A stretch of DNA of 64,000 nucleotides from NCBI GenBank assembly GCA_044369655.1, contig JBILWX010000006.1, forward strand, positions 2,102 through 66,101, in the 5' to 3' direction. The stretch comes from Pirellulales bacterium (GTDB lineage: Bacteria; Planctomycetota; Planctomycetia; Pirellulales; UBA1268). How positions within the stretch are numbered: position 1 is the first letter of the stretch; each line of letters opens with the position of its first letter. The translations under genes and the position numbers were made by a program. The notes under the pieces were generated by a model. That model saw only the letters and a program-made list of their open reading frames with translations, was not told where the DNA came from and made no database searches. Below, in pieces: positions 2,902-50,003 of the stretch.

Positions 2902-2934
2902 GCCGAGTTCAGTCTGCAGTGTGCGGGCGTGACA

Positions 2935-4078: not shown

Positions 4079-6664
4079 CTATTTCAATCCACGATTGAGC
4101 CCGCGCAAAAGTCGCTGGCGCTTGGGCGGAGCGGCCGCGACGAATGCGTCCGGCCATTCCGATACGGGGCCGCTGGGCTTCGCCCAGCGGGGACGGTAGG
4201 AAAAGAAGAATGCCTTGCGGGCGCGATCCGAAAAATTGTGACTACCTGCGTGGATCGTAGAGGAATGGAACAGGACGGCGTCGCCTGCCTTGGCGAGGAC
4301 CATTCTGGCATCGGGTGCGAGATGCTCCATGTCCTGGCAAGGCGTTAAGTCATAAAAACAATGACTCCGCGGGACCACCCAGAGCGGCGCGTGGTCGGCC
4401 GTCATGCTGGTAAGGTAGATTCCAACATTGATCCAGCAGGCGCAAGAGTTGCGGAAGTCGCCCTGTTGTTCGCCAATTCCATAGTCGGCATGAAGCGACT
4501 TTCGGGTGGTCGCGTTGACGCCCCGTCGCTCGGTGGGTGTTTCAACGAATGCGCCCTTGAAGAAGCGGATGTCCTCGCCAAGCACAGCGTGGAGAACTGT
4601 GAGCAATGTGTCGTTCTCGATGAGGGGAGGGACGGAAGGCGCGTGCCAGATGTCTTCCGTAGTGCCCTTCAGACCATGGGAGTCGACTTCGCGCAGGATC
4701 GACGCCAGATGGTCCGGTGCTACCACTTGCGGGATAAGCAGGAATCCATTTTCAAAATAAAAGCGGCGCTGCTGTTCCAGCGTCATCCCGGTCCAGTCGA
4801 CATCAAATACCAGGTTGGTGTTCTTTCGAAACGCCAGTGTTGCGAACGTGTATTTGAATCCACCGAGTTCAAAATCTGGTTTTGGGCAGTCCCATTGCGG
4901 GGCATCGACGAGGGCACAGTCTGTGAGTAGCGGGAGGATTCTGTTGGTGAGGTCGTTTTTCGAATAAAATCGGAAGTCTCCCTGGACGACCGGATCCCCG
5001 GCCCGGTATTGATCCTGGAAGTCGCAGGTGAGCACGGAGACACCTCCCGGGGCGAGGAGTGCCACGATCTGAGATATGAATTGCTCGTCGTCGCGGACGT
5101 GTTCGATGACGGACGTCGAAAAAATAATGTCGTAGCTGGCCTTGGTCGTGGTGGTCAGCGAGAAAAAGTCATTCAGATCAATGCCGTTGACTACAGGGTC
5201 GATCCGTTCGATGTGATACCCAAGTTTTATGAGGCTCTCGCAGGCCGTGTCTTCGAAACTACCGACGCAGAGTATTTTGGGCGAGTTGTAATTGCGGGCG
5301 AATCGTTCGACCGAATCCAGCATAAACGCCTGCTGAACGTTGGCGTCGGGGATTTTTCCACGCATCATCTCGGGCACCAGCTGGTGGAGACGATTGATAG
5401 AGTGCCGATATTTCTCGCGAGCCTTGTCGTCGAGGATCCGATTGAACCGGATCTGTTCACGGAATGCCTGATATCTGCTCAACGACTTTCGCTTCGCCAC
5501 GCGGACGAGACGCCTTGTCCTGTTCAAGATCCCGCGGGCAGCGTGCAGTAGCGGTACTTTCATGCTAACCACTCTCTTTTGAAGCGAGGCGATGGCGCGT
5601 CGCTCGGGTTGAAGGGGAATGGCGACTTGTTTCCGCCGGTCTTCCAAGATGGCTGCGGCGACGATTCTATCATAAGTCTCCACCATGTTTTCCGGGGACC
5701 ATAGCTTCCTAAGTTGGTCATGCGGTGCCGTTCCGTTCGCAATGATCCGCTTCATCGTCACGTCTTCGATCGTTACCGGGGGGGTGAGGTCGAACAGGTG
5801 TCGAAACATGATCGATTTGGAAGTTACGAACGGGCGCTGCGCGGCGATGGCGTGGTCGGTCGAACTTGATATCCCAGCGACCTTGATGTAGTCGTACAGG
5901 AATGCGTTGATCGTGTTAGATGCAAGAAAGTCCAGTACCTCTGACTGACTCATGAAGTGGTTGGAGACCTCGAGGCGGACGCCCGGTTTGCGGATCGTGG
6001 CGCGGCAAGACTCGATCTGTCTCAACGCCTGATCTCCCCGGGGATCGACGATTCCGTTGGCGGGAATGTGGACGCGGATGATCGCGGTGTCGAACTCCCG
6101 TTGGACCGTCTCGACGACCCGCGAATAGCCCTTGCTCCCGACCGAAAAACCGAATGTCCCAACCGTGACGACACTGGGGAGTGTCTGCCGATTGACATAG
6201 GGCACAATCAGGCGGCCGGTCTTGAATACCCGCGGGTTGCGCTCTTTCAGTGTCGGATCACCCATCGCGTAATACTGAAAAAACTGCGAGGGCATTTCAT
6301 CTGCTTCCCCTTGGGTCATTTCATGCATTACGGCGATATTGACCGGAAGGAATCGGCGCGGGCCCCGAGGGTCGATGAACGAGAGCGTCTGTGGATGGTA
6401 GTTGTAGATAATCGCAGAATAATCCCCACCCTTAACCGCCTCGTCGATATCCGCCATCGAACGGACCGGGAGGTAGCGATATTGATATCTGCGTGATTGC
6501 TTCAGCGCGTGAAAAAGATTCAGTCCGTATTGATAAACGCCACAGTTTTCAATCGCATAATTCACAAACAACACGCGGCCCAAGCACGCGTCTTGCATCG
6601 CTGTATCCCTATCAATGAGAGGCTTGGGACTAACGGTGTTCATGCGCGGGTCTCGTATGCTCAA
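4079..6664 (-). CDS. Three-module protein: degenerate GT-B-like N-domain, class I SAM methyltransferase, and PhyH-type Fe(II)/2-oxoglutarate dioxygenase
   Basis: The middle module reads ILCVGSFEDTACESLIKLGYHIERIDP...YDIIFSTSVIEHVRDDEQFISQIVALLAPGGVSVLT (methyltransferase motifs I and post-I). The C-terminal module reads HADYGIG...PLWVVPRSH...AGDAVLFHSSTIHAGSHN..RKAFFFSYRP (a PhyH-like HxD...H facial triad). Confidence 0.75.
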   Translation of the reverse strand: MSIRDPRMNTVSPKPLIDRDTAMQDACLGRVLFVNYAIENCGVYQYGLNLFHALKQSRRYQYRYLPVRSMADIDEAVKGGDYSAIIYNYHPQTLSFIDPRGPRRFLPVNIAVMHEMTQGEADEMPSQFFQYYAMGDPTLKERNPRVFKTGRLIVPYVNRQTLPSVVTVGTFGFSVGSKGYSRVVETVQREFDTAIIRVHIPANGIVDPRGDQALRQIESCRATIRKPGVRLEVSNHFMSQSEVLDFLASNTINAFLYDYIKVAGISSSTDHAIAAQRPFVTSKSIMFRHLFDLTPPVTIEDVTMKRIIANGTAPHDQLRKLWSPENMVETYDRIVAAAILEDRRKQVAIPLQPERRAIASLQKRVVSMKVPLLHAARGILNRTRRLVRVAKRKSLSRYQAFREQIRFNRILDDKAREKYRHSINRLHQLVPEMMRGKIPDANVQQAFMLDSVERFARNYNSPKILCVGSFEDTACESLIKLGYHIERIDPVVNGIDLNDFFSLTTTTKASYDIIFSTSVIEHVRDDEQFISQIVALLAPGGVSVLTCDFQDQYRAGDPVVQGDFRFYSKNDLTNRILPLLTDCALVDAPQWDCPKPDFELGGFKYTFATLAFRKNTNLVFDVDWTGMTLEQQRRFYFENGFLLIPQVVAPDHLASILREVDSHGLKGTTEDIWHAPSVPPLIENDTLLTVLHAVLGEDIRFFKGAFVETPTERRGVNATTRKSLHADYGIGEQQGDFRNSCACWINVGIYLTSMTADHAPLWVVPRSHCFYDLTPCQDMEHLAPDARMVLAKAGDAVLFHSSTIHAGSHNFSDRARKAFFFSYRPRWAKPSGPVSEWPDAFVAAAPPKRQRLLRGLNRGLK

Positions 6665-7833: not shown

Positions 7834-9058
7834 TCTCGATTTCGGGCATTGGGAAAATGAGGTGCCCGCCTGCGTTGAGGAAATCGGCTTCACGTTCGAT
7901 GATGCCCGCTTTGAAGTGCCAGGGGAGTACCAGGAAAAAGTCAGGCCGGGCCGCACGCGCCTCTTGCTCTGACACGATGGGGATGTGTGTGCCGGGTGTC
8001 ACGCATCCATGCTTATCCGGGTTCACGTCGGCGATACAAGGAATGTCGTGGGCGGTAAGACCACAGAATTGGAGCATGACGTTGCCCTTGGTTGATGCTC
8101 CGTAGCCAAACACGCGTTTGCCTGACTGATTGAGTGCATGAATCAATGCGGTGAGGCTGCGACGGTGTTCGTAAACACGGTCTTCAAAGTCCCGAAATGG
8201 TTTTGGGGTGTGCAGCCCGATGCGTTGCTCCGTCGCAAGGAGCCAGTCGATGACTGCCTTGTTTCGGCGGAATGTAGAGCCCCGGCGGGCTGCCGTGACT
8301 GCAAAGCTGCCCCCGTTTACCGCGTTCATTGTAACGTCGATGACTTCCATCTCGGCCGCTGCGAGGATCGTCTCCACCACGCCCAAGCTGTAGTACTCGA
8401 TGTGCTCGTGACAGACCGTGTCATACGAATTCATTCGCAGCATTGACGGCATATAGCTTTGCTCGAAGTGCCAGAGCCCGTCGTGTGCAAGGCAGTCATG
8501 GATTTGCCGTGCGAACTCGATCGGTGTTTCGAGATCGTAGAACATCGCTATGGAAGTGATCAGCTTGGCCTTGAGAGTTCCGGCAGCGGCGACAAAGTTG
8601 TCGCGGCTGAAAAAGTCCGAGACGAGCGTGGTGTCGTCTGGATACATGTGCCGAAATTTAACTCCCGTAGGGTCGATGCCGATTCGGAACAGCCGCGGCG
8701 TCGAATATGATTTCAATAACGTTCCGTCGTTGCTCCCGATGTCTAGCACCAGGTCGCCGGGCTGGAGATCAACGAATCGACTGAGGTGGGCGGTCTTGGC
8801 GGTTAGATGCCGAACCATCGACGCGTTGAGGCCCGAGCGATAGCCATAGTTGGTCCCGTACATGGATCCAAGTTCAAAGCGATGCGCAAGTTGCAACAGC
8901 CCGCTATCTGGGCACCACACAAGTTCAAGTTCACCCATCGGTACGGGCTCGCTAGCTGACCGTGGAAACGTCCCGGTAAACGCTTGGGAGCCCAGGTGCA
9001 AGACGGGAATGAGGTTGGTGCTGTTCGATATGCGGCAACTGTGAATTCGCTGGCTCAT
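7826..9058 (-). CDS. NDP-hexose C-methyltransferase-like (TylCIII-type architecture)
   Basis: SCRISNSTNLIPVLHLGSQAFTGTF...LVWCPDSGLLQL is a degenerate Zn-ribbon. A class I methyltransferase core follows (LVLDIGSNDGTLL), then a C-terminal Rossmann-like domain (RVFGYGASTKGNVMLQF). The start is taken at the internal ATG MSQRIHSC; the track start is 9100. Confidence 0.7.
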   Translation of the reverse strand: MSQRIHSCRISNSTNLIPVLHLGSQAFTGTFPRSASEPVPMGELELVWCPDSGLLQLAHRFELGSMYGTNYGYRSGLNASMVRHLTAKTAHLSRFVDLQPGDLVLDIGSNDGTLLKSYSTPRLFRIGIDPTGVKFRHMYPDDTTLVSDFFSRDNFVAAAGTLKAKLITSIAMFYDLETPIEFARQIHDCLAHDGLWHFEQSYMPSMLRMNSYDTVCHEHIEYYSLGVVETILAAAEMEVIDVTMNAVNGGSFAVTAARRGSTFRRNKAVIDWLLATEQRIGLHTPKPFRDFEDRVYEHRRSLTALIHALNQSGKRVFGYGASTKGNVMLQFCGLTAHDIPCIADVNPDKHGCVTPGTHIPIVSEQEARAARPDFFLVLPWHFKAGIIEREADFLNAGGHLIFPMPEIEIV

Positions 9059-9239
9059 AGCAAGTGTCCGAAAAAGGGTTCTGCCGGTTATGCGGTTCAC
9101 GTCGCCCCGTTTAGGAACCGACGGTCACCATTGTCGGCCCATCTTAAAAGGCGGTGGTGGTACGAAGAGCGAGGAGGGATGAAACAGTTGGGAGTACGGT
9201 GCCTCTGGCGACATATTCGAACATGCGTGGATCATTCGG

Positions 9240-11093
9240 TCACAAGCGTGCTGACTCAGCCGGAAGTAAGACCCCCCCGAAATCCATGCGGATCACGCGG
9301 TCGCAGTAGGCAGTAGTCGAGAGTCGGTGTGCGATCAGGATGATTGTCAGGTCGCGTGACAGTCCATCAAGCGTGTCCATGAGGACCTTTTCCGTATGGT
9401 CGTCGAGGGCGCTCGTCGCTTCGTCGAAGACGAGAACGGGTGCCTGCTTGTAGAGGGCCCTGGCGATGCCGATCCGTTGTCGCTGGCCGCCGGAGAGCCG
9501 TACGCCGCGTTCGCCCACCGTCGTCGCGTAGCCCTGTGGAAGCGACCCGATGAAGTCGGCGATCTGCGCCTGCCGGGCTGCGGCCTCGAGCCTGGTCTGA
9601 TCCACCTCGGCCGCCGGGACGGCCAGCGCGATGTTCTCAGCGATCGACGTGTCCGCCAGGAAAATGCTTTGCGGCACGTGCGCGATGTTCGCCTGCCACG
9701 CTTCGGGGGCGACCTCGCGGCCGTCGATCAGCATCCGCCCGCTCGTTGGCATCAAAAGCCCCAGGAGGATATCGGAGAGCGTGCTCTTGCCACTTCCAGT
9801 CGGGCCCACGAGGGCAACACGTTCGCCGCGGCGGATCTTGAGCGACACATCACGAAGCACGGGCGGCAGGTCGGGCTGGTAGCGAAACGACACATTGTCG
9901 AGCGAGATGAACTCCGTGAACGGCGCCGCGGTTGCCCGCGGCCGGTCGCAGTCGGGGGCCTCCTGGTCCAGCAGATCGAGCACGGTCTCGAGGCCGGCTG
10001 TGTAGTTATGCATCTGAGCGACCGACATGTAGGTCTGCTGCAACGCGGGCAGCAGTCGCTGGGCCCCAAGGGCTAGGGCTCCAAGCACAGGAATCGCCAC
10101 CGCGAGGCCTCCCTGACGCGTCACGAGCACGTAGGCGAGGGCTGCCACGGCCGCCATGCCTGCGGCCTCTATCACAAACCGTGGAAAGCTGGCGAGCAAT
10201 TCCGCCCTCGCCCTCAGTTGGCGGATCGACCAGTCAGCGCCGCGGTAGCGGGCGAGATAGTAAGGCTGCGAGCGGTCGAGGAGAACGTCGCGGATGGCGC
10301 CCAGTCCCTCGTGGACGTTCTGCGCGAGGGCTTTACTGCTCGCGGCCTGTCGGCGGCTGTTGACGGCCAGCGACGTCTTCGTGGCCGCTGAGATCGCGAG
10401 ATAGGCGGTGCCGAACGTGAGCACGGTAAGAAACGCTACTCGTGGATCGATGATGACGAGGCCGATGGCGATCGCCACGATCACCACGACGTTCACCGCC
10501 ACCAGTAGCAGCGGGTTAAGCACGCCGTAAATCAGGCCATCGACGTGCGAAAGCATCGCCGTCGTGATCGTGGCCGAGTTGCGAGCCAAGTGGACGGCGT
10601 AGGGCTGGTAGAGGGTGCGACGGTAGGCCTCCTGCGAGAGATCGCTGCCGATGCCTGCGGCCACACGGCCAGAGAGCCAAAGATTCACGAGGCGAATACC
10701 GCCCGCGGCAATTGCGGAGAGGCCGAAGATGAGCGTGACTGGAAGGAGCAACTGAACTGGCTCGGTGAGACCGCCGGACTTCGAAACTGATTGAATCCAT
10801 GGGTGCCGCCATAGCCGCTCCGGGTCGGCAAGCACCGTGAGAAATGGCACGACGGCGGCGAGGCTCACGATCTCCGCGAGCCCGCTCGCCAGCATCGAGG
10901 CAAAGACAGCCACGAGTTGATATCGCCGTTTTCCCGGTAGATGGGTCCACAGCCGCCCGAGCATGGAAAACAGCGACGGGCTCGTCGAGTCAGCGGCTTC
11001 CGACCCGTGGGCGGCCGATTCATCGGCGCGCACTCCGTTCTTCTGGGTGGCATCCGCCGAGGCAGAAGCCATGCTCGTGGCGGTCATTTCCAT
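9240..11093 (-). CDS. ABC transporter, fused permease/ATPase (MsbA-like exporter)
   Basis: It has six predicted N-terminal TM helices, Walker A GPTGSGKST, signature LSGGQRQRIGIARAL, and Walker B VLVFDEATSALD. Confidence 0.9.
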   Translation of the reverse strand: MEMTATSMASASADATQKNGVRADESAAHGSEAADSTSPSLFSMLGRLWTHLPGKRRYQLVAVFASMLASGLAEIVSLAAVVPFLTVLADPERLWRHPWIQSVSKSGGLTEPVQLLLPVTLIFGLSAIAAGGIRLVNLWLSGRVAAGIGSDLSQEAYRRTLYQPYAVHLARNSATITTAMLSHVDGLIYGVLNPLLLVAVNVVVIVAIAIGLVIIDPRVAFLTVLTFGTAYLAISAATKTSLAVNSRRQAASSKALAQNVHEGLGAIRDVLLDRSQPYYLARYRGADWSIRQLRARAELLASFPRFVIEAAGMAAVAALAYVLVTRQGGLAVAIPVLGALALGAQRLLPALQQTYMSVAQMHNYTAGLETVLDLLDQEAPDCDRPRATAAPFTEFISLDNVSFRYQPDLPPVLRDVSLKIRRGERVALVGPTGSGKSTLSDILLGLLMPTSGRMLIDGREVAPEAWQANIAHVPQSIFLADTSIAENIALAVPAAEVDQTRLEAAARQAQIADFIGSLPQGYATTVGERGVRLSGGQRQRIGIARALYKQAPVLVFDEATSALDDHTEKVLMDTLDGLSRDLTIILIAHRLSTTAYCDRVIRMDFGGVLLPAESARL

Positions 11094-37539: not shown

Positions 37540-38346
37540 TCAGGCCTTCGACGCCGGCAGCCGGCCCTCGGCCAACTCCCGGTCCCATTCCTCGATCAGC
37601 GGCCAGTGCTGGGCGCAGGTGCCGAAGTCGGCCAGGCTCAGATAGCCACGCAGCCGTTCGAGGGTCTTCGCGAGCAGGTGACCGTCCTTCTTGAAGATCG
37701 GGCCGTGGCTCGGAAGCAGCCACTCCACGTCGCTGGCCGCGATCCGCTCGAGCGACTTGATGAAGGCCGGAATGTCGCTGCCGTGGTGGGCGTCGATCGC
37801 CCCCACCGAGCCGTCGCGGTAGATGTTGTCACCCGAGAGCAGCAGGTTGCCCAGGCGGAAGGCGAGTTGGCTGTCGGTGTGGCCCGGCGTATGCCAGACC
37901 TCGAGTTTGTGGCTGCCGACCTCGATGATGTCGCCGTCGACGACCTCGCGATCGATCTTCACCACCGGCATGTCGAGGTGGACGTTCTGCGCGGCGATCT
38001 CGGCGAAGGTCTTGATCCGGTCGCCCGTCTCCAGCGACTCGACCGCCAGCGGATGCGCCAGCACCGGAGCCTTGAGAATCCCCTTCGCCTTGGCCAGCCC
38101 CTGGATGTGGTCGACGTCGGCGTGCGTGGCCACGAGGGCCTTGCACTGCGACAGCGGGAAATCCATCTCCCGGATCATCTCCACGATCTCGTCGACGCTC
38201 TCCTCGTAGCCGATGTCGATGAGCGCCCAGTCGCGGTCGTCGTAGACCAGGTAGACGTTGCAGCCGATCCGCCAGCCGGCCTGGTGATTCATCTCGATGA
38301 CACCGGGGAAAATCGGACGACGTTCAAGCATGGGGTTGGATCGCAC
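37540..38346 (-). CDS. MBL-fold metallo-hydrolase
   Basis: [12 protein letters not shown] (HxHxDH-type motif), WHTPGHTDS, and LLPSHG. Confidence 0.85.
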
Positions 38347-38467
38347 TCATGGGGAAAACGCCGGCAACACGGACCGCCCTCCGCCCGCAGCCGGATTTGC
38401 GGCAATCGTCGGCGGAAGACACACTGGATGCCGAAGTTTAGACGTTTTCCATCCAAAGTGTAGCGGC

Positions 38468-40354
38468 ATGGCATCTTTCCCTCGGACGGGGTTTGCGGCG
38501 TGGGCCGGCAGCGTCGACGAGCTGTGTCGGCTCATCGACGCCCTGCAGCCGCTCGGCCGCTCCCTGGGAGCTCCCGACCCGCAGGCCGACGATTGGTATG
38601 GCGCGCTATTCGGCAAGCTCCGGCCGCAGGTGTCGCGGGAGCCCCTGCTCGTGGCCGCCGTCTGCGGTGGCACGAACACCGGCAAGAGCCTGATCACCAA
38701 CACGCTCGTGGGTGCGGAGATCAGCCGCTCCGTGCCGGAGGCGGCGCGAACCCGTCATCCGGTGGCGAGCCTGCCGCAGGGACTCGCCACGCGAATCGAT
38801 CTGGCGGCACTCTTTCCCGGCTTCTCCCCCGCGCCGTGGCAAGGCGTGCAGGACGCGATCGACCTCGGGCCGGATGCGAGCGGCAACGCCGATCGGCTCG
38901 TGTGGCGCGAGGATGCCGGCGGCCGGCAGCCCGCCCGGCTCGTGCTTCTCGACACCCCCGACATCGACGGCACGCTCCGGGAAAACTGGCACCGCGCCGA
39001 ACTGGTGCGGAACGCCTGCGACGTGATCGTGGCCGTGCTCACCCAGCAGAAATACAACGACGCCGCCGTGCGGGATTTCTTCGCCGCCGCGGCGGCCGCC
39101 GGGAAGGCCGTGGTCGTCGTCTTCAACATGATCGACTGGCCGCGGCAGCGCGACCGCATCGGCGGCTGGCTGGCCACCTTCACCGCCGAGACCGGCGTCG
39201 CTCCGCTGGCGGCATACGCCGTGCCGCACGACTTCCGCGCGGCCGAGGCGGGACGGATCGAGTTTCATCCCCTGCCCGAACTCACGCCCGACGGCGCCGC
39301 GGTCGACCTCGCCACCCGCCTGGCCGAGTGCGACTTCGATTCGATCAAGCTGCGGGCGATGGAGGGAGCACTGCGTGTCGTGCTCGATCCCGCGACCGGC
39401 GCCGGCCACTGGCTCGACTCGTTCGAAACCAGCGCGAAGGAGTGGCGGGACGCGCGCCGGTTGCTGACGGACGAGGCTCATGTGCGGGTGGAACTGCCCA
39501 CTGCGCCGCGCGAGATCGTCTGGAACGAGATCTGGCAGTGGCTCGAACCGCGGCGGTCGGGCCTCGACCTCACCGTCAGCAAGGTCTATCGCGTCGCCGG
39601 CAAGGGCGTGAGCTGGGCGGCGCGGCGGGTGGGGCTCGTCCGCAGCGAGGCGGAACGTCGCGAGGATTTTTCGACGCTCGAACTGGCGGCCCTCAAGACC
39701 GCCCTCGGCGACTTCGTGCAACGGCTCGACGACGCCTGCCGTCGCAATCCGCGGCTCGCCGCGATGCTCGGGAGCCGGCTCGTGGATGGCGATCGCGCGG
39801 CCTGGTATGCCGACCTCGAACGCCGCCATGCGAGCCTGCCGCTGGTGTCGGAGGATTACCGGGCGTTCGTCCGCCACGAACTCGACCGTTTCGCGAAGGA
39901 AAACCCCGGCATGGTGCGGTTCATCCTCACGGGGCTCAACGTGGGCGCGGTGGCGCGGCCCGCGATCACGGTGGCGCTCGGCATGGCGGGCGCGGCGGCC
40001 GTGCCCGCGGCGGCCGCCTCGGCCGGAGGGCTTTCCGTGCTCGTGCACCATGTCGGCGACGTCGTCGTGGGCACAGCGGCGACGATCGCCGGCGAGGGGG
40101 CGCTCGGCCTCACGATGGCCGGGCTCAAGCCGCTCATCGAGACGCTCTTTGCAGGCTGGTCGGCGGAACGCGGCCGCGTGCTCGCGGAGACGTTGCACGA
40201 CGTCGTGCTTGGCGACCGGTTGGAGGAGATCGACCGCCTGGCCAACGCGGCGGCGGCACCGGAGGTGGCTCAGGCCCGTCGGCTGCTCGTGGAATGCGGC
40301 CGTGATATCGGCCGCGACATGGGCCGTGGCATGGGCCAGGAGGTTTCCCGATGA
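38468..40354 (+). CDS. Dynamin-like/large GTPase, paralogue 1
   Basis: G1 is CGGTNTGKSLITNTL and G3 is LVLLDTPDIDG. The motif VAVLTQQKY is shared with paralogue 2. A Gly/Ala-rich hydrophobic segment lies near the C-terminus (VGAVARPAITVALGMAGAAAVPAAAASAGG). The start is taken at ATG MASFPRTG. Confidence 0.7.
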   Translation: MASFPRTGFAAWAGSVDELCRLIDALQPLGRSLGAPDPQADDWYGALFGKLRPQVSREPLLVAAVCGGTNTGKSLITNTLVGAEISRSVPEAARTRHPVASLPQGLATRIDLAALFPGFSPAPWQGVQDAIDLGPDASGNADRLVWREDAGGRQPARLVLLDTPDIDGTLRENWHRAELVRNACDVIVAVLTQQKYNDAAVRDFFAAAAAAGKAVVVVFNMIDWPRQRDRIGGWLATFTAETGVAPLAAYAVPHDFRAAEAGRIEFHPLPELTPDGAAVDLATRLAECDFDSIKLRAMEGALRVVLDPATGAGHWLDSFETSAKEWRDARRLLTDEAHVRVELPTAPREIVWNEIWQWLEPRRSGLDLTVSKVYRVAGKGVSWAARRVGLVRSEAERREDFSTLELAALKTALGDFVQRLDDACRRNPRLAAMLGSRLVDGDRAAWYADLERRHASLPLVSEDYRAFVRHELDRFAKENPGMVRFILTGLNVGAVARPAITVALGMAGAAAVPAAAASAGGLSVLVHHVGDVVVGTAATIAGEGALGLTMAGLKPLIETLFAGWSAERGRVLAETLHDVVLGDRLEEIDRLANAAAAPEVAQARRLLVECGRDIGRDMGRGMGQEVSR

Positions 40355-42189
40355 CCAGGGAGCATGCCGGCGTCGAGCCGGTCGACTTCGCCAGTTTCGA
40401 CGAACTGGTCGAAGCCCTCGCGCGGTGGAGCGGCTCGCTGCCGGAATGGGCGCCCGCCCGCGCCGTGCGGGCCGAATGGGAACAGGTGGAGCCCCGCCTC
40501 GACCGCGCCCGCCGTGAACTCTCGCGGATGCTCGTCGTCGGCGTGATCGGCGGCACCGGCACCGGCAAGAGCACGCTCGTCAACGCGCTGGCCGGTTGCG
40601 ACCTGAGCCCCGCCGGCGACATCGCCCGGCCGACCACGATCAACCCGGTGGTGGTCGCCGCCCGCGACGTCGATCTCTCCTGGCTGCCGGTCGACACGAT
40701 GAACGCCCGCGTGGTCCGCAGCGACTCGGCCGCGGTCGCCAACATCGTGCTCGTCGACTGCCCCGATCCCGACACGCAGGCCGAATCACGGCAGGGGGGC
40801 GGGCAGGCGTCACACGGCCCCGCGCGGCCGAGCGACACGAACCACAACCGCGATCTGCTCGAGGCCGTGCTGCCCGCCTGCGACGTGTTGCTGCTCGTGT
40901 CGACCGCGCAGAAATACCGTTCGTGGGTCGTCGCCCGCGAGGTGGCCGCCTTTGCCCCGGGCCGACCGCTGCTCTTCGTGCAGACCCACGCCTCGCGGGA
41001 TCCCGATATCCGGGACGATTGGCGGCGGGAACTGGAATCGCAGGGCTTCGTCGTGCCACGGATCTTCCGGCTCGACGCGGTCGACGCGGCGACGCGGTCG
41101 GCTGCGGGCCTCGAGCCCGACAGCGGTTTTCGCGAGTTGGTGGAAGCGATCGACGCGGAGCTCGTGGGCCGGGCCGCCCGCCGTGTCCGCCGCACCGGCA
41201 GCCTCGATCTCGCCGGCTGGTTTCTGCGGCAGTCGCGGGAGGGGCTCGACCCGTTGCGCGAGCCGGTCGCCCAGCTTGCCGCGGGTGTGGCGAGCGAGCG
41301 GACGCGGCTCGAGGGGATCCTCGCGAAGTCGGTCGGCGTGCGGCTGCGGGCCAGCCGCACGGCCTGGCAGCGCATCCTCACCAGCGAGATCGTCGAACGC
41401 TGGCACGGCGGACCGTTCGCGACGTTTCTCCACCTGGTGGAATCGATCATCGCGTTCTGGCCGCGGATGCGGGCCGCCGGCAGCGGCCTGATCAGCCGGC
41501 TGCTGACCGGGCAGGGGGTGGGCGCGATTCCCGCGGGGCAGGGTGGCTGGCAGGCGGTCGAAGAACTCGGGCTCTCGGCAGCGGAGGTCGAGCAGTCGCG
41601 GAGCGTTCTTTCCGGACTGGCCGCGCGGGCGCGTCTCGCCGAGCCGCTCGTGGGCCGGGCGCGGTTCGCTGAAGCCAACGTGGCATCGACCGTCGGCACG
41701 CTGCTCGAACGGACCGCGGCCTGGCTCTCCTCCGGCATCGATCGCCTCGTCGCATCGCGCCGCGGACGGATCGACGGGCCGGTGTTTCGCTGGGTATGCG
41801 AGGCGCTCTTTTCGGGGCTGCTCGTGGCCGTGCTCGTTCGGGCGGGCTGGAATTTCTTCGTCGGCCATCTCTGGCAGGGCCGCGTGGTGGACGGCGGCGG
41901 CTTCCTGCAGGAGGCACTCGTGTGGGTGATCCTGTGGGGATTGCTGCTGCGGTGGATCGCGTTCGCACGTGTGCGTGTCGGACTCGACGGCGACATCCAA
42001 TCGCTCGTGTCCCGGCTGCCCGAGGCCCACCTGACCGACCCCCTGCTCGCCGACTTCGCCGCCGCCGCCGACGCGACGGCCCGGTTCATCGACTCAGGCG
42101 ACAGGCTCGCTCGCGACCACGAGACGCTCGTTGCCCGCCTGACCGAGCCGAGCGCCGGCCTCGGCCGCCTCCGTGGAGACGTGCGATGA
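40351..42189 (+). CDS. Dynamin-like/large GTPase, paralogue 2 (membrane-anchored)
   Basis: G1 is IGGTGTGKSTLVNAL, G3 is IVLVDCPDPDT, and the shared motif is LLVSTAQKY. There are two C-terminal TM helices (LFSGLLVAVLVRAGWNFFV and ALVWVILWGLLLRWIAF). There is an ATGA overlap with paralogue 1. Confidence 0.7.
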   Translation: MTREHAGVEPVDFASFDELVEALARWSGSLPEWAPARAVRAEWEQVEPRLDRARRELSRMLVVGVIGGTGTGKSTLVNALAGCDLSPAGDIARPTTINPVVVAARDVDLSWLPVDTMNARVVRSDSAAVANIVLVDCPDPDTQAESRQGGGQASHGPARPSDTNHNRDLLEAVLPACDVLLLVSTAQKYRSWVVAREVAAFAPGRPLLFVQTHASRDPDIRDDWRRELESQGFVVPRIFRLDAVDAATRSAAGLEPDSGFRELVEAIDAELVGRAARRVRRTGSLDLAGWFLRQSREGLDPLREPVAQLAAGVASERTRLEGILAKSVGVRLRASRTAWQRILTSEIVERWHGGPFATFLHLVESIIAFWPRMRAAGSGLISRLLTGQGVGAIPAGQGGWQAVEELGLSAAEVEQSRSVLSGLAARARLAEPLVGRARFAEANVASTVGTLLERTAAWLSSGIDRLVASRRGRIDGPVFRWVCEALFSGLLVAVLVRAGWNFFVGHLWQGRVVDGGGFLQEALVWVILWGLLLRWIAFARVRVGLDGDIQSLVSRLPEAHLTDPLLADFAAAADATARFIDSGDRLARDHETLVARLTEPSAGLGRLRGDVR

Positions 42190-44491: not shown

Positions 44492-45280
44492 TCACTTGGC
44501 GGAAACCGTGCGGCTCACCGCCACCACCTTGCCGCTGGTCTGCTTCTTGGCAGACGCATCGGGCGTGGGGGCCGGGGCAACCGCCGGCGACGAGTCGCAG
44601 GCACTGCAGGCACCGCAGGCCGGCTCAGCACCGCAGCCGGGCTCGCAGCCAGCGCTGCAGTCGGGCTCGCAGCAGCTGGTGCAGCTCTTGTGGCAACGGT
44701 TCTTCTTCGCCTGGTGGATCGCCTTCAGCAGGTCAAGGATCCGGTGAGACTTCTTGCAACGAGCAGCACCGCAGCTGGGCTCGCAGCAGCCAGCACCGGC
44801 GTCGCAGGCCGGCTCGCAGCAGCCGTTGCCGGCACCGCAAGCAGGTTCAGCGCAACCGTTGCCAGCACCGCAGGCCGGCTCGCAGCAGCCGTTGCCAGCG
44901 TCGCACGCCGGCTCGCAGCAGCTATCCGTGCAACCACGGCACTTCTTCTTGCAAGCGAACAGACCCTTCAGACCGCCGAAGAGGTCATGCTTCTTCTTCA
45001 GGCAGCCCTTCGCGGCACCGCAGCTCGGCTCGCAGCAGCCAGCACCAGCGTCGCAGGCCGGCTCGCAGCAGCCGTTCCCAGCACCGCAGGCCGGTTCCGC
45101 ACATCCATTGCCGGCCCCGCAGCCGGGTTCGCAGCATCCATTGCCGGCATCGCAGCCGGGCTCACAGCACGAGGTGCAGCCCTTGTGGCCGAGCATCTTG
45201 TCAAGAAGCTCGAAACCAAACGACTGACTACAAACGGTGACACCGAGAACCAGCGCACCGAGGAACAACATACGCTTCAT
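44492..45280 (-). CDS. Secreted cysteine-rich tandem-repeat protein (CCEPxCxAGxG units)
   Basis: The signal peptide is MKRMLFLGALVLGVTVCSQS. Then come 2 x 5 units of CCEP[AGS]C[GD]AG[NA]G separated by Lys-rich linkers, plus degenerate units. SD AAGGAG lies 10 nt upstream of ATG 45280. The track start is GTG 45310. Confidence 0.75.
   Translation of the reverse strand: MKRMLFLGALVLGVTVCSQSFGFELLDKMLGHKGCTSCCEPGCDAGNGCCEPGCGAGNGCAEPACGAGNGCCEPACDAGAGCCEPSCGAAKGCLKKKHDLFGGLKGLFACKKKCRGCTDSCCEPACDAGNGCCEPACGAGNGCAEPACGAGNGCCEPACDAGAGCCEPSCGAARCKKSHRILDLLKAIHQAKKNRCHKSCTSCCEPDCSAGCEPGCGAEPACGACSACDSSPAVAPAPTPDASAKKQTSGKVVAVSRTVSAK
44605..45172 (-). repeat. Intragenic 30-bp tandem repeat array within a roughly 200-bp duplication (approximate bounds)
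   Basis: The repeated GCTGCGAGCC(G/A)GCCTGCG..GGCAACGG units encode the CCEPxCGAGNG repeats. They also generate long spurious antisense ORFs (44690-45340 and 44754-45227). Confidence 0.7.
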
Positions 45281-45712
45281 CGAGCCACATCTCCTTTGCT
45301 TGTAGATCACGTGAGAGTCTTCGTCCCGATCGCGAGGTAGAGGTCACCCCGAGGTTGTGATCTACGAACTGTCTTGCGGCAGGCCTGTCGAGCCATTCCG
45401 TGACTCGAAGTATTTTCAGGTTGCTGCCGCCCCCTGGTTGCCCGACGGGCACAGTGATTGCCCCGGGGGACATGAGGGGCTATCGGCGGGCAGGGGAAAG
45501 CGGCTTGAGCGACACCCAAGTATTTTTCGTCACAGGACTTGTGGCGTGTTGTGCGCAAGAAATGCCACGTGTTCCAGCCATGCAATCTGTGCGGCGCAGC
45601 ACCGTACAACCCGTACAAATTCAGGCGGTTCTTCTGCGCAATCGGCAAGGTTTCACACGCGGTGACGCCGCGTGTGAGAGTGTGCGGATTGTGGTGCCGC
45701 AATCGTTCCAGC

Positions 45713-45740
45713 TTGACAGGGGCGGCACCACCGTTAGACT
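45713..45740 (+). promoter_or_regulatory. Sigma70-type promoter candidate (TTGACA-16 nt-TAGACT) for the riboswitch leader
   Basis: TTGACA is at 45713-45718 and TAGACT at 45735-45740, immediately upstream of the riboswitch. Confidence 0.5.
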
Positions 45741-45751
45741 CCGCCAACGAA

Positions 45752-45965
45752 TCTGGTGGCCCGTCGTTCGCAGCTGTGAACGGCAGGCAAACAGGGAACT
45801 CCGGTGCGATTCCGGGACGGCCCCGCCGCTGTATTTGGGCGCATTTCCCCGACAGGAAAGAGAGGCCGGCTGTTTTCAGGCCATTGCGACCGAAACGGTG
45901 CCAACCGTGCGGTGTGCGAGAAGGCATGCAGCCGGTCGAGCCCGAGAGTCAGAAGACCTACCAGC
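45752..45965 (+). promoter_or_regulatory. Cobalamin (B12) riboswitch
   Basis: The core at 45789-45833 reads AAACAGGGAACTCCGGTGCGATTCCGGGACGGCCCCGCCGCTGTA (compare E. coli btuB AAUAGGGAAUCCAGUGCGAAUCUGGAGCUGACGCGCAGCGGUAAGG). The B12 box at 45947-45962 reads AGTCAGAAGACCTACC (compare GCCCGAAGACCUGCC). Boundaries are approximate. Confidence 0.8.
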
Positions 45966-46118
45966 ATTCACGAGGAGCGCGTGCTGACCGCGAGGGCGGT
46001 TGCACGGGCACGGTCTGCGTGTGCAGGCTGTTGGATTGACTGGCAACCGGTCTGTCTGGAGTGTGCCCGGCCATTCGCTGTCGTGGGCAGCGCTGCGCCC
46101 TGGCGTCGGAGAGGCCGC

Positions 46119-47018
46119 ATGGAGGCTGTCATGCAGGTAGGCATTGGTCATCGGGGCGCTTCCCTGCGCCGGTCGGGCTTCTCGCTCGTGGAACTGCTCG
46201 TCGTGGTGTCGATCATCGGGGTGCTCGCGGGGTTGCTCCTGCCCGCAGTGCAGTCGGCACGGCAGTCGGCCCGGGGGATGACGTGCGCAGGCAACCTCCG
46301 GCAACTGGGGCTCGCCTTGCACAATTACAGCTCGGCCAACGGCGAGAAGTTCGTCTGCCAAAAGATCGACTCCCTGCAACGCTACGAAAACACGGTGGCC
46401 GGAAGCTGGACGCCGGGCGGAACGGCGGCTTTCTGGTTCGGCGAAGTCGACTACACCGCCAGCCCGCCCAAGTGCGACTTCGAGAAGGGGCCGTTGCGTC
46501 CGTTCTTCGAGTCGAACGCAGCGCTGCTCCAATGCCCCAATTTCCCCAGCAGTGCGGTCGGACAGCTCCAGTATGGCGCGGGTATCACGACGGCCTTCGG
46601 CTACAACACGCAGCTGGGGCCCGGGTCGACGTATGAATACGACGAGAACTACAGCGTCGTCCGGCACGCCCGGACGCAGGCATTTCGTCTGAAGGACATC
46701 GCCGAACCGTCCCGCACCGTCGCGTTCGCCGACACCGCCATGGTCCACTGGTCGTTGCCGTACGATCTGCGGGAGCAGTTGGGCGGGTTCGACATGCCCT
46801 CCACGGTCGATCCGGTCGCCCATTTCAGGCACGCCGGTCGGACGGCGACCGTCGTCTTCGTCGACGGGCACGTGGAATCGTACCCGTGGAAATTCCGTCG
46901 GGGGCCCTATACGAGCGACGAGCAGCAGCAGCAGATGGATTTTTACGGCATCGGCGTCATCTGCGACGGCGACCCTGCCGTCGCGGCGGATGCAGACGCG
47001 TTGTTCGATCGCCGTTGA
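46119..47018 (+). CDS. DUF1559 domain protein with type IV prepilin-like N-terminal methylation motif
   Basis: [54 protein letters not shown] is the canonical planctomycete DUF1559 N-terminus. The C-terminus [15 protein letters not shown] is of the H-X9/10-DG type. The alternative start is 46131. The track ORF start at 45804 overlaps the riboswitch and is rejected. Confidence 0.9.
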
Positions 47019-47056
47019 CCGGTGGAGACGGCCGGTCGCACCCGAGGGATGAAGCA

Positions 47057-47365
47057 GTGGCGAGAGATCCGCGATTCTGGACGGCCGTGGTCGCCTTTGC
47101 GGTGGCGGCCTGGCTGATCGCGCCGCACGTCGTGGGGCGGCGGCCTCCTGCCGTGGCGGCGGATGCAACGGTGGAAATACCGTATGTCTGCGTGGAGAGC
47201 GGCGAGGTCTTCCGACTTCGGGCTTGCGAGTCGGCCCAGGTCCATCCCACGACCGGCAAGCCGACGCTGGTGCCGGCGGTCTACGATGCCAAGCGGAAGA
47301 AGTGGAAGCCGGGGCCGCCCCTCGAGATCATGCACAAGCAAGGGCTGCTCAGGCCGGCGTCGTGA
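47057..47365 (+). CDS. Small single-TM protein (102 aa), hypothetical
   Basis: It has a GTG start preceded by GAGGGA, one TM helix (FWTAVVAFAVAAWLIAP), and a roughly 70-aa domain with two Cys residues. It is probably co-transcribed with the DUF1559 gene. Confidence 0.45.
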   Translation: MARDPRFWTAVVAFAVAAWLIAPHVVGRRPPAVAADATVEIPYVCVESGEVFRLRACESAQVHPTTGKPTLVPAVYDAKRKKWKPGPPLEIMHKQGLLRPAS

Positions 47366-47400
47366 GGGCGTGTGGCCGCGGGAGGGCGCTTGGCCGGGCA

Positions 47401-47976
47401 TCAGCCGCCGACGAGGAACGGCTCCGGGGCGAGGTGCGGCACCTTCGATTGCATGGCCGCGGGCCATGTGGATCCGCACAGCAGGACCCGCAGCGTGCGG
47501 ATCACGCCGGCGTGGGTGATCCAGAGCGTCCGGCCGAGTCCGCCCGTGGCGTCGCCCGCGGCCCGCACTCTCGCTTCGAGGTCGGCCAGCGATTCGCCGC
47601 CCGGCGGTGCCGTGGTCTGCCACTGCTCCATCCAGCGCTGCAGCCGCTCGCCATCGTGCTGCTCGATCCACTGCCACGGCTTTCCCTCCCAGTCGCCCAT
47701 GGAGAGTTCGGCGATCCGCGGATCTTCGTCGTGTGCGAGGCCGAGCCGAGCGGCGAGCGGCGCGGCGATTCGTCGGCAGCGTTCCGCGGGGGAGGAGACG
47801 ATGCGCAGGATGTCGCCGGCTGCCGTCGGAGCCAGGGCGGCCCCTGTCGGCAAGCCTGCCAGGGCCTCGAGGATCGTGTCGGCGTCGGTCTGGGGCGGGT
47901 TCATCAGCGGCGGATTCCATCGGCCGTAGCAGATGCCTGCGGCGGCGACCGGGCCGTGCCGGACGGCGACGATCAT
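47401..47976 (-). CDS. cobC: Histidine-phosphatase family, alpha-ribazole phosphatase-like
   Basis: MIVAVRHGPV.. carries the RHG motif. ..ITHAGVIRTL.. follows. There is an ATGA overlap with cobS, and the gene sits in the cobT-cobS context. Confidence 0.7.
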   Translation of the reverse strand: MIVAVRHGPVAAAGICYGRWNPPLMNPPQTDADTILEALAGLPTGAALAPTAAGDILRIVSSPAERCRRIAAPLAARLGLAHDEDPRIAELSMGDWEGKPWQWIEQHDGERLQRWMEQWQTTAPPGGESLADLEARVRAAGDATGGLGRTLWITHAGVIRTLRVLLCGSTWPAAMQSKVPHLAPEPFLVGG

Positions 47977-48791
47977 GCGGCGGCACTCCCGCGCACGAGG
48001 GCCACCGCCAGCAGAAACGCCACCTCGGCGCACTGCTCCGTGGCACCGAGAAAGTCGCCGGTGAGGCCACCGATCCGACGGACGAACCGCCAGCCGAGCA
48101 GCAGGGTGATCGCGGCGGCTGCGAGAATGCCGGCGGTCGACTCTCCGACCGTGATCGCACCGACGAGCAGGGCCGCGCCCAGCCCGGCGGCACACCAGGC
48201 CGTCGCCAGCCAGGCCTGCCCGTAGCCCGCCCGTGTGACGAGCTTGCTCTTCGCGGTGTCGTCCTGCGTGACGTAGGGAATCGTGGCCATCAGCCAGACT
48301 GGCGGCGTGCGGGCGAGCCCCTGCGTGAGGATGATGAGCGCCGGTACGGTGGCGGGGCTGAGTTCGCCGAGCCGGGCGAGCAGGCTGATCCGCAGCAGCA
48401 GCGTGATCAAGAGGCTGGCGGCACCGAACGCCCCGATGCGGCTGTCTTTGAGGATCTCGAACACCTTGTCGCGGTCGACGACGCCCCCGAGCGCGTCGGC
48501 GGTGTCGGCCATGCCATCCTCGTGGAAGGCGCCGGTGAGGAGCATGCCAAGCCCCGTCACGAGCGCGGCTGCCGGCACCATGCCGGCATTGGCGACGATC
48601 ACCCAGGCCGCCGCCATCGCCGCGCCGATCACAAACCCGACGAACGGAAACCAGCCCGAGGCCCACCGCCATGCATCCGGCGGGTAGGGAAAGCCGCCCA
48701 CGGGAATCCGCGTGAGGAAGAAGAAGGCGGCGCGGCAGGCTGAAACGATTGGCGGCATGGGTGGCGGCTTGGTTGCCGGCTTGGTTGGCAT
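47973..48791 (-). CDS. cobS: Adenosylcobinamide-GDP ribazoletransferase (cobalamin synthase)
   Basis: FFLTRIPVG, LLTGAFHEDGMADTADALGG, and a polytopic membrane profile. Confidence 0.9.
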   Translation of the reverse strand: MPTKPATKPPPMPPIVSACRAAFFFLTRIPVGGFPYPPDAWRWASGWFPFVGFVIGAAMAAAWVIVANAGMVPAAALVTGLGMLLTGAFHEDGMADTADALGGVVDRDKVFEILKDSRIGAFGAASLLITLLLRISLLARLGELSPATVPALIILTQGLARTPPVWLMATIPYVTQDDTAKSKLVTRAGYGQAWLATAWCAAGLGAALLVGAITVGESTAGILAAAAITLLLGWRFVRRIGGLTGDFLGATEQCAEVAFLLAVALVRGSAAA

Positions 48792-48818
48792 CAGGGCGGC
48801 TGGTGGCCGTGGTGGCGC

Positions 48819-49871
48819 TCAGCTGCGGTCCGGGACGCCTGCCTCCGTGAACGACGCCATCGCGTTGTGGGTTTCGCAGGCCAGATCCAGGAGCGGTAAC
48901 GCCGCCAGGCCCCCGGTACCTTCGCCGAGCGCCATCTCGAGTGCAAGCAGCGGTGATGCCCCGAGCCATTCAAGCAGGAGCCGGTGGCCGGGCTCGCCCC
49001 CGACGTGGGAAAAAACCACGCCGGCACGGGCGGCAGGCTCGGCCGCGATCAGGGCGGCGATCGCCGCCGTCGAGATGAAGCCATCGGCGACGACGACCAG
49101 CCGCCTGGCGAGCGCGGCGGCGGCGGCCCCCACGATTGCCGCCAGTTCGCGGCCGCCGGCGCGGCGGAGGATCTCGAGCGGCGGACTGCCGACGACGCGG
49201 GCGTGCGACTGACGGACGGCGTCGAGCTTCGTCGCGAAACAGTCGCCGGTCGCACCGGTGCCAGGTCCCGTCACGAGTTCCGGCGCCAGGTCGCAGAGGC
49301 TGCTCGTCACGGCCGCGGCCAGCGTGGAGTTGCCGATCCCCATTTCGCCGAGGATGACCGAGCGCGTCTCGGGCGGAAGGGCGGCCACGGCGTCACGGCC
49401 GGCGGCGATGGCCGCGGCAAACACCGCCGGGGTCATGGCATCCTCGGTGCGCACGTCGCCCTCCTGGGCATCCGCCACCGGCGACCGCTCGAGGGTCACG
49501 GCGTCGGCCGCCGTGAAATGCGTCGCCGATCGGCCCGCCACCACGCCGACGTCGACGACCCGCATCGGCACCCCGAGGCGCCTGGCCATGACCGAGGAGG
49601 CGGCGCCGCCGCGGATAAAGTTCCCCACCATCGCCGCCGTGACCGCCTGCGGATAAGGCGACACGCCGGCCAGCGCGATCGGATGGTCAGCGGCAAAGAT
49701 GAGCACCTGCGATGGCCGGACGGCGGGGCGTGGGGTGGCCTGCCAGGCCGCGATGTCCACGGCCAGCCGCTCGAGCCGGCCGAGGCTGCCGGGGGGCTTC
49801 GTCAGCCCGGACTGCCGCTCCGTGGCTGCCGTCCGCGACGCGTCGCATGGTGGTGGAATGGGCGAGAACAT
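48819..49871 (-). CDS. cobT: Nicotinate-nucleotide--dimethylbenzimidazole phosphoribosyltransferase
   Basis: LTKPPGSLGRLERLAVDIA, GEMGIGNSTLAAA, and the C-terminal GEGTG. The start is uncertain (49871, 49886 or 49988). Confidence 0.9.
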   Translation of the reverse strand: MFSPIPPPCDASRTAATERQSGLTKPPGSLGRLERLAVDIAAWQATPRPAVRPSQVLIFAADHPIALAGVSPYPQAVTAAMVGNFIRGGAASSVMARRLGVPMRVVDVGVVAGRSATHFTAADAVTLERSPVADAQEGDVRTEDAMTPAVFAAAIAAGRDAVAALPPETRSVILGEMGIGNSTLAAAVTSSLCDLAPELVTGPGTGATGDCFATKLDAVRQSHARVVGSPPLEILRRAGGRELAAIVGAAAAALARRLVVVADGFISTAAIAALIAAEPAARAGVVFSHVGGEPGHRLLLEWLGASPLLALEMALGEGTGGLAALPLLDLACETHNAMASFTEAGVPDRS

Positions 49872-50003
49872 ATAAACGCAAAGCATCGTGACCGAACCAC
49901 GGACATCGCGCTGACGATGGTTCATGTGGGGAGAAAACGCAAGCCCCGTGAACGCGTGTTTCCCCCTCCGGCTCTGCACGCTCCACAAGGATCATCCCTC
50001 GCC

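Follow-up and report, generated by a model that had tools for sequence, protein, structure and literature searches.

In this study, we investigated a cobalamin riboswitch and the two genes behind it in a 64-kb stretch of DNA from a Pirellulales bacterium (contig JBILWX010000006.1). The whole 64-kb stretch is referred to here as the window, coordinates are numbered from its first letter, and L-numbers denote the comparison loci. The riboswitch lies in the leader of a gene for a prepilin-type protein of the DUF1559 family (gene A), which is followed on the same strand by a gene for a small protein (gene B). An earlier note on this DNA, written from the letters and their open reading frames, had proposed that the riboswitch controls this pair and that the pair takes part in corrinoid capture or uptake. 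The features of the leader and of the two genes are as follows.

45713-45740, plus strand: sigma-70-like candidate promoter, TTGACA-16 nt-TAGACT, 10 of 12 consensus positions
45740-45979, plus strand: cobalamin riboswitch aptamer, RF00174, best-scoring family of clan CL00101
45977-46009, plus strand: first expression-platform hairpin, P13-like, with compensatory changes in its outer stem (RNAalifold, 27 sequences)
46011-46030, plus strand: second conserved hairpin, 8 predicted pairs and a GUGU loop (RNAalifold covariation)
46121-46125, plus strand: Shine-Dalgarno sequence GGAGG, 5 nt 5' of the conserved start codon of gene A
46131-47018, plus strand: gene A, prepilin-type DUF1559 protein, 295 aa (PF07963, PF07596, TIGR02532)
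47057-47365, plus strand: gene B, 102 aa, GTG start, one N-terminal hydrophobic helix (76 homologues aligned)

The riboswitch leader and genes A and B

With cmscan, the RF00174 match at 45740-45979 on the plus strand reached 61.6 bits against a gathering score of 31.5 (E 8.2e-13), its alignment spans the full length of the model (positions 1-189 of 189), and it is the sole Rfam match across the 64-kb window. The conserved core at 45789-45833, AAACAGGGAACTCCGGTGCGATTCCGGGACGGCCCCGCCGCTGTA, and the B12 box at 45947-45962, AGTCAGAAGACCTACC, both align with posterior probability '*' to the consensus blocks of RF00174 with which they were compared, namely GGGAA...GGUG...CC...GCCCCGC..CUGUA for the core and an AGYCAGRAGACCUGCC-like block for the B12 box. 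The candidate promoter, whose last base (45740) is also the first base of the riboswitch match, is the sole promoter-like site in 45300-47600, a region in which shuffled sequences yielded 0.1 such sites on average. The core, the B12 box and the near-consensus promoter just upstream were all claimed in the earlier note, and all are present as described there. The aptamer ends about 150 nt 5' of gene A on the same strand. As an RNA, the window riboswitch is an ordinary member of RF00174, and the novelty lies in its regulated partner.

Beyond the aptamer, the two conserved hairpins together comprise 20 pairs predicted by RNAalifold from 27 sequences, 12 of which display double-sided compensatory changes; pair 52/61 of the second hairpin, for example, is CG in 16 sequences, UA in 10 and AU in 1. 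The first hairpin harbors the invariant GCGAGGGCGG at 45990-45999, which takes the form GCG(A/C)GGGCGG across the leaders of the clade, and its GGCGG is complementary to the CCGCC within the invariant aptamer loop L5 (GGCCCCGCCGC). A kissing loop between L5 and L13 is a feature of other cobalamin riboswitches, and hairpin 1 is accordingly a candidate kissing-loop partner of L5 here; because both partners are invariant within the clade, it is complementarity alone that suggests this loop-loop pairing. In Roseimaritima ulvae, a cultured species discussed below, L5 differs (GGUCCCGCC) and a complementary GCGGGA lies 12 nt past the aptamer. Covariation of L5 with L13 between the clades is suggestive, the pairs being GGCGG:CCGCC for the window clade and GCGGGA:UCCCGC for R. 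ulvae, but it is not claimed, as the register is ambiguous. A long-range alternative helix obtained from a single-sequence minimum-free-energy fold of the leader was not used, since its conservation could not be shown, and the fold did not establish that the Shine-Dalgarno sequence is sequestered.

The second hairpin is not a canonical intrinsic terminator because it lacks a U-tract, and a scan of the leader for terminator-like sites found no canonical intrinsic terminator. In the window the Shine-Dalgarno sequence lies about 90 nt past the hairpins; in L049 it stands closer, about 45 nt from the aptamer. Translational, Rho-dependent and attenuation-like control are all candidates.

Gene A has an alternative start at 46119, which would give 299 aa. 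Close relatives keep the arrangement GGAGG(T/C)-N4-5-ATG, and the ATG at 46119 is replaced by AGG or ACG in L010, L015 and L016; the ATG at 46131 is the likely start and corrects the one at 46119. The protein matches the N_methyl domain (PF07963) with 28 bits against a cut-off of 21.2 and TIGR02532 with 26.7 against 16.3, and its class III signal, RRSG/FSLVELL, satisfies the rule of G at -1, a hydrophobic residue at +1 and E at +5. The match to SBP_bac_10/DUF1559 (PF07596) reached 38.3 bits against 23.3 with just positions 1-29 of the 268 profile positions aligned, and the globular part of A is divergent from this profile. Near its C-terminus, A carries an H-X10-DGH motif in which H, D and G are nearly invariant. 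For TIGR04294, the H-X9-DG model, no match to the window protein was found at E<=0.01, and the orthologue in L040 scored 12.6 bits against a cut-off of 19.

The structure of A was modelled with AlphaFold2 on an alignment of 129 sequences that included the distant subfamily, which gave a predicted local distance difference test score (pLDDT) of 93.5 and a predicted template-modelling score (pTM) of 0.86; this model superseded one made with 34 close orthologues alone, which was unusable (pLDDT 39). It displays a helix at residues 19-69 followed by 11 strands, with a β-rich head of about 225 residues, and A is thereby predicted with high confidence to be type IV pilin-like, with a long N-terminal helix packed on a β-sheet head. 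A Foldseek search of the model against the PDB gave no match at E<=1e-3, the best and weak match being the type IV pilin FimA (3sok, probability 0.57), and a sequence search of A against the PDB matched the pilin helix only. Against the named pseudopilin equivalogs (GspG, GspH and ComGC), A stayed far below the cut-offs and aligned through its N-terminus only, with TIGR01710 at 33.4 against 88.85 bits. Searches of Pfam, NCBIfam and the PDB gave no match of A to known B12 or cobalt uptake families, including BtuB, BtuFCD, ECF-CbrT, BtuM, CbiMNQO and others.

The protein encoded by gene B belongs to a narrow family, with 76 homologues and 20 invariant alignment columns, and it has no Pfam or NCBIfam match. 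Its conserved C-terminal domain follows the pattern YxC...G..F...P.TG..TLVPAVYD...W..GPP. A profile search for B returned 99 representatives of 50% clusters at E<=1e-3; two long B-like matches with ten matched stretches each (P0354, P0395) were rejected as false positives, being eukaryotic C2H2 zinc-finger proteins. The B-like partners in R. ulvae (L045, 5905-6258) and L051 (4887-5231), detected by hmmsearch at 2e-8 and 6e-9, are lipoproteins with LLGC and IFGC lipoboxes, respectively, and because B-like partners elsewhere are lipoproteins, the domain of B is taken to be extracytoplasmic. Outside the window clade, B-like partners (P0319, P0323 and P0340 among them) were also observed to be lipoproteins or otherwise anchored and to carry CxxC...C zinc-ribbon-like cysteines. 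This pattern suggests that B descends from a zinc-ribbon-like ancestor and that the window clade has lost the pattern, keeping one of these cysteines. We had considered the single invariant cysteine of B as a BtuM-like cobalt ligand, and this idea was dropped in favor of a remnant of the CxxC...C pattern.

The description of the pair in the earlier note, as a DUF1559 protein with a type IV prepilin methylation motif next to a 102-aa protein with a single transmembrane helix, agrees with the PF07963 and PF07596 matches above their cut-offs and with the one N-terminal hydrophobic helix of B. Its statement that the downstream reading frames encode neither a TonB-dependent receptor nor BtuFCD nor cob products holds as well, as no TonB_dep_Rec, BtuF or BtuCD domain was found in A or B.

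Recurrence of the linkage and its companions

The RF00174 riboswitch was found directly 5' of an A-like gene in 45 of the 46 evaluable loci scanned, the window included. Of about 515 kb of loci, roughly 500 kb was scanned with Rfam, a collection that held no negative-control DUF1559 paralogues; each positive locus contained one RF00174 match, always before the A-like gene, and the scanned DNA contained none elsewhere. In metagenomes, the A orthologues form a tight group (57-98% identity), and the riboswitch precedes the orthologue in all six evaluable contigs. A scan of GTDB with the B alignment, at one genome per species, recovered 34 loci, all from uncultured Pirellulales/Planctomycetia metagenome-assembled genomes. 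In three of these the contig ends before the position of the riboswitch; in each of the 31 evaluable species-representative genomes, RF00174 lies directly 5' of A on the same strand and 1.1-1.4 kb 5' of B. These loci share one order of genes, comprising dynamin-like GTPases, an amino-acid ABC transporter, a cysteine-rich protein, the riboswitch, A, B and a variable slot, followed by methyltransferase, ABM, GATase and MoeA genes, and because of this common synteny the 34 loci largely reflect vertical inheritance. Within the clade, aptamer scores hold at 45-83 bits even where A has fallen to 43% identity.

Starting from the most divergent orthologue, that of L040, a search led to a wider A-like subfamily at 36-54% identity, which includes a protein of the cultured Roseimaritima ulvae. 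The A-like proteins form at least three groups, with 35-45% identity between groups. Seven of the eight distant A-like genes, which are 35-45% identical to the window protein, also have RF00174 directly 5', with scores of 107 bits in R. ulvae (L045, CP042914.1), 58 in L046, 119 in L048, 108 in L049, 78 in L050, 75 in L051 and 118 in L052. In R. ulvae UC8, the riboswitch occupies about 4,838,580-4,838,795 of CP042914.1, with gene QEG41472.1 after it. In six of these seven, the flanking genes are unrelated to those of the window or to each other, and L046 has the synteny of the window. The absence of the leader upstream of orthologues, which the earlier note had named as evidence against its proposal, is thus not what was observed, and the position of the riboswitch directly 5' of this DUF1559 subfamily is kept even where neighbourhoods share nothing else. 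The term "gene pair" fared less evenly: it holds in the window clade and in some other loci, but not across the subfamily, since four of the eight distant loci (L047, L048, L049 and L050) lack B or have an unrelated protein in its place.

Two side observations were made on these loci. In L047, the interval 4592-5903 contains no RF00174 match at E<=0.01, and a TTGACA...TAGACT promoter-like site is found just before the A-like gene; this lineage is abundant, its protein P0240 being listed in 55 blocks of the collection. Several records of metagenome-assembled genomes titled "Candidatus Kuenenia" or "Chitinophagaceae" (L017, L018, L022, L023, L024, L031, L033, L036 and L040) carry a Pirellulales-type locus in which the ABM, GATase and MoeA neighbours are 76-96% identical, and these labels look wrong.

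Past gene B, the window contains three genes for the assembly of the nucleotide loop of cobamides.

47401-47976, minus strand: cobC, alpha-ribazole phosphatase-like histidine phosphatase (His_Phos_1; ribazole_cobC below the model cut-off)
47973-48791, minus strand: cobS, adenosylcobinamide-GDP ribazoletransferase (PF02654, 160.9 bits)
48819-49988, minus strand: cobT, nicotinate-nucleotide--dimethylbenzimidazole phosphoribosyltransferase (TIGR03160, 321.8 bits versus 319.3)

As the earlier note had it, cobT-cobS-cobC (47401-49988, minus strand) converge on A and B; cobC lies 35 bp from the stop codon of B and is not downstream of the riboswitch, and the window cobC-cobS-cobT set has no riboswitch of its own. 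Most members of the clade have nothing in the variable slot after B. The convergent set occupies it in the window, L009, L018 and L028, while a co-directional cobT-cobS-cobC follows B in L037, L038 and L040 and a co-directional cobT-cobS, up to the contig end, in L007/L008; such co-directional cassettes lie at 7987-10192 (+) in L037, 7965-10176 (+) in L040 and 1508-3276 (+) in L008. The co-directional genes are only about 40% identical to those of the window, as judged by CobT, and therefore represent a separate acquisition. This implies that the cob cassette has been gained or lost repeatedly at one site. In the window and most of its relatives, no cob gene is downstream of the leader, and because of this A, with B, stands out as the constant regulated unit. 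Judged across the loci, the A-like gene is apparently the constant target of the riboswitch, with B, DUF6580 and cobTSC as recurrent but optional companions.

DUF6580 denotes a polytopic membrane protein (PF20221, E 2e-26) encoded between B and cobT in L037, L038 and L040. Genes of this family also follow the A-like gene in the unrelated L050 and L052, which brings the total to three independent contexts, and the family is absent from the window. The genes, all assigned to PF20221, are placed as follows.

L040, 7240-7923: DUF6580 gene
L037, 7349-7933: DUF6580 gene
L038, 1494-2174: DUF6580 gene
L050, 5301-5837: DUF6580 gene
L052, 2637-3200: DUF6580 gene

Searches with DUF6580 gave no sequence match to solved structures in the PDB, BtuM included, and no NCBIfam match. 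From its position in these loci, it is a candidate inner-membrane carrier of corrinoids or of their lower ligands. All three companions, B, DUF6580 and cobTSC, would be compatible with corrinoid acquisition followed by nucleotide-loop assembly, and as putative operon partners they reinforce the tie of the leader to cobamide metabolism. Other genes found next to the A-like gene are bioF in L048, two FUR-family genes in L049 and a different small lipoprotein in L050.

Probable corrinoid acquisition and its alternatives

Nearly all cobalamin riboswitches, when bound to ligand, repress B12 uptake, B12 synthesis or B12-independent isozymes. B12-dependent repression of A and B is well supported by inference, and the off-with-ligand direction is assumed by analogy with almost all other cobalamin riboswitches. 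Because an envelope protein that undergoes prepilin processing can be neither an isozyme nor a biosynthetic enzyme, and because A is constant behind the leader, the reading that we prefer is corrinoid acquisition, and A and B are probably a B12-repressed envelope component of this process. The RF00174-type riboswitch, in the leader of a two-gene transcript, would shut off A and B when coenzyme B12 is sufficient. When B12 is scarce, both proteins would be made; A would be processed like a type IV pilin or a type II pseudopilin, and B would be its small membrane-anchored partner facing the periplasm. A would then acquire corrinoids (cobalamin, cobinamide or a related precursor) in the envelope, either as the subunit that binds the ligand in a pilus or pseudopilus fibre or as a binding protein anchored in the inner membrane, and would pass its ligand to an inner-membrane carrier, for which DUF6580 is the candidate where present. 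CobT, CobS and CobC, as nucleotide-loop enzymes, would finish or remodel the cofactor. Within this scheme, ligand binding by A or B and the route of transport are inferred. Taken together, the loci suggest what may be an undescribed route of B12 acquisition. Published work gives this reading some context: planctomycetes have pili-like fibres to which dextran binds and which have been proposed as a path of uptake (PMC5394234), proteins with N_methyl and SBP_bac_10 domains fractionate with membranes (PMC8567305), and a 2009 survey of three planctomycete genomes met with no known nickel or cobalt transporter (PMC2667541).

Several systems offer points of comparison. The btuB leader of E. coli and Salmonella is a cobalamin riboswitch controlling an outer-envelope B12 receptor. 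The leader described here resembles it in placing an RF00174 aptamer in the 5' leader of an envelope-protein gene, with a possible L5-L13 kissing-loop platform and an expected off state with B12; it differs in that A is a prepilin-processed DUF1559 protein rather than a TonB-dependent barrel and in that the window Shine-Dalgarno sequence stands about 90 nt past the conserved hairpins. BtuG and BtuH of Bacteroides are riboswitch-controlled surface lipoproteins for accessory corrinoid capture. Like them, A and B are envelope proteins, not transporters, whose genes follow a B12 riboswitch and which would bind corrinoids before a carrier takes over, but the sequences are unrelated, A has a pilin-type helix and not a lipid as its anchor, and no BtuB partner is found nearby. 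Competence pseudopili take up DNA. With these, and with the dextran-binding fibres of planctomycetes (PMC5394234), A shares a pilin-type subunit that could bind external cargo and bring it to the periplasm; here, in contrast, the cargo would be a small cofactor, the window holds no assembly ATPase, platform or secretin gene, and the placing of A in a fibre is a proposal. DUF6580 compares with BtuM (PMC6072759) and ECF-CbrT carriers as a small polytopic membrane protein behind a B12 riboswitch beside B12 genes, yet it has no sequence match to solved structures, those of BtuM included, and is not in the window. With the planctomycete DUF1559/SBP_bac_10 and N_methyl family, A has in common the prepilin signal, the start of PF07596 and a putative C-terminal H-X(9-10)-DG motif, and pairing of this family with a small signal-peptide or lipoprotein gene has been described (PMC8567305). 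Unlike DUF1559 at large, the A subfamily is distinct, with members at least about 35% identical and Pfam covering the first 29 positions only, and in the literature searched it is the only DUF1559 group with a tie to an RNA that senses a metabolite.

A number of observations weigh against the corrinoid-acquisition reading. Neither A nor B has a recognisable corrinoid-binding domain, and because the head of A has no solved structural relative, its fold is silent on the ligand. DUF6580 and the cob genes were found in a minority of loci only, and B is missing beside the riboswitch-linked A-like genes of L048, L049 and L050. L047 keeps an A-like gene in window-type synteny and has lost both the riboswitch and B. 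Moreover, most of the positive loci belong to one syntenic clade and are not independent events, so that independence is carried by about six non-syntenic contexts.

Among the other explanations, A and B might answer B12 starvation in a different way, A being either a pilus adhesin to B12-producing partners or a pseudopilin that adapts type II secretion for a corrinoid-scavenging factor. Adhesion is a common role of pilins, pseudopilins are known to power secretion, A is similar at its N-terminus to GspG, GspH and type IV pilins, and our data do not distinguish an inward from an outward function; co-transcription with DUF6580 and with CobT, CobS and CobC, however, better fits import followed by processing, and no secreted cargo gene is conserved beside A, which makes this explanation unlikely in our judgment. 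Cobalamin riboswitches also control cobalt transporters in B12 producers, and A and B could on this model acquire cobalt or another metal for corrin synthesis and not the corrinoid itself. Metal-related hints are the two FUR-family regulator genes after the A-like gene in L049, a gene of the Na/Ca-exchanger family after that of R. ulvae, the secreted protein of 17% cysteine encoded divergently upstream in the syntenic clade, and the zinc-ribbon-like cysteines of B-like partners outside the clade; in addition, a 2009 census found no known nickel or cobalt transporter in three planctomycete genomes (PMC2667541). Against this, the recurring partners are nucleotide-loop and salvage genes (cobT, cobS and cobC) and DUF6580, no cbi/cob ring-synthesis or chelatase genes are found among the operon partners, no subfamily-specific metal-binding motif was identified, and the metal-hinting neighbours are confined to single loci. 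We consider metal acquisition quite improbable.

The comparative data also bear on the suggestion that the riboswitch serves the downstream cob genes, or is a decaying relic, with the DUF1559 gene as a passenger. The same-strand cobT-cobS(-cobC) downstream in L007/L008, L037, L038 and L040 is what such an arrangement would look like, but the window has its cob genes in convergent orientation and most loci have none; the only gene that constantly follows the leader, and the first to do so, is the A-like gene. Aptamers still score 45-119 bits where the proteins retain as little as 35% identity, and covariation is seen in the leader hairpins; these kept scores together with the covariation therefore point to purifying selection and not to decay. 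The passenger explanation is largely refuted on these grounds and has very little probability left.

DUF1559 proteins have no assigned function; Planctopirus limnophila carries 68 of them, including two that are essential (PMC10632474), and Planctomycetales genomes harbor 41 or more N_methyl genes, most with the SBP_bac_10 domain (PMC8567305). A literature search of incomplete coverage found no paper linking DUF1559 to cobalamin, no mention of DUF6580, no link between a riboswitch, prepilins and B12, and nothing relevant on H-X9-DG; a 2025 review of the phylum is silent on B12, cobalamin, pilin and TonB. In one NCBI record the R. ulvae protein is called "DUF1559 family PulG-like putative transporter", so a transport role had been guessed before, while a prior tie to B12 was not found in the literature searched. 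DUF1559 is among the largest paralogue families of Planctomycetota, and the riboswitch gives this family its first ligand-linked clue; a metabolite-sensing RNA before a subfamily is the most direct clue to a ligand that can be obtained from sequence alone, and it implies that this paralogue matters when coenzyme B12 is short. The linkage hints at a way in which a group abundant in fresh and marine waters may acquire a vitamin that is scarce and shared, independently of the classical BtuB route, and it nominates the small partner family of B and DUF6580 as B12-linked. The idea of pili-assisted nutrient capture (PMC5394234) thereby becomes testable: its ligand and its protein are specified, and one carrier, R. 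ulvae (protein QEG41472.1 / WP_202908893.1), is in culture.

A wider proposal would make DUF1559 proteins the substrate-specific capture subunits of a pilus or pseudopilus import machine that replaces TonB-dependent receptors in Planctomycetota, with the riboswitch-marked subfamily specific for corrinoids and aided by a small partner in the periplasm and, in some lineages, by a DUF6580 carrier in the inner membrane. We regard this proposal as possible, though doubtful. If true, it would amount to a new class of B12 uptake system and would assign the first substrate to a family whose paralogues number 40 to over 100 per genome.

Other genes in the window

In the rest of the window, no gene for a B12-dependent enzyme, a known B12 transporter, or pilus or type II secretion machinery was found. 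Divergently 5' of the riboswitch, 44492-45310 on the minus strand encodes a secreted protein of 272 aa with 46 cysteines (17%) and repeats of the CCEP(A/G)C(G/D)AGNG type, without a Pfam or NCBIfam match. It is kept in about 30 syntenic loci at 50-93% identity and may be a metal-binding or structural protein of the envelope. Further upstream, at 38288-42189 on the plus strand, lie two large genes for dynamin-like/MMR_HSR1 GTPases, which are kept upstream in the same synteny (L004, L046 and L047). The region 878-26534 holds a sugar-modification and polysaccharide cluster with three GT2 genes, one GT4 gene, GDP-mannose-dehydratase-like epimerases and two C-methyltransferases, along with two radical SAM proteins, a DegT aminotransferase, a PhyH-methyltransferase fusion and an ABC exporter.

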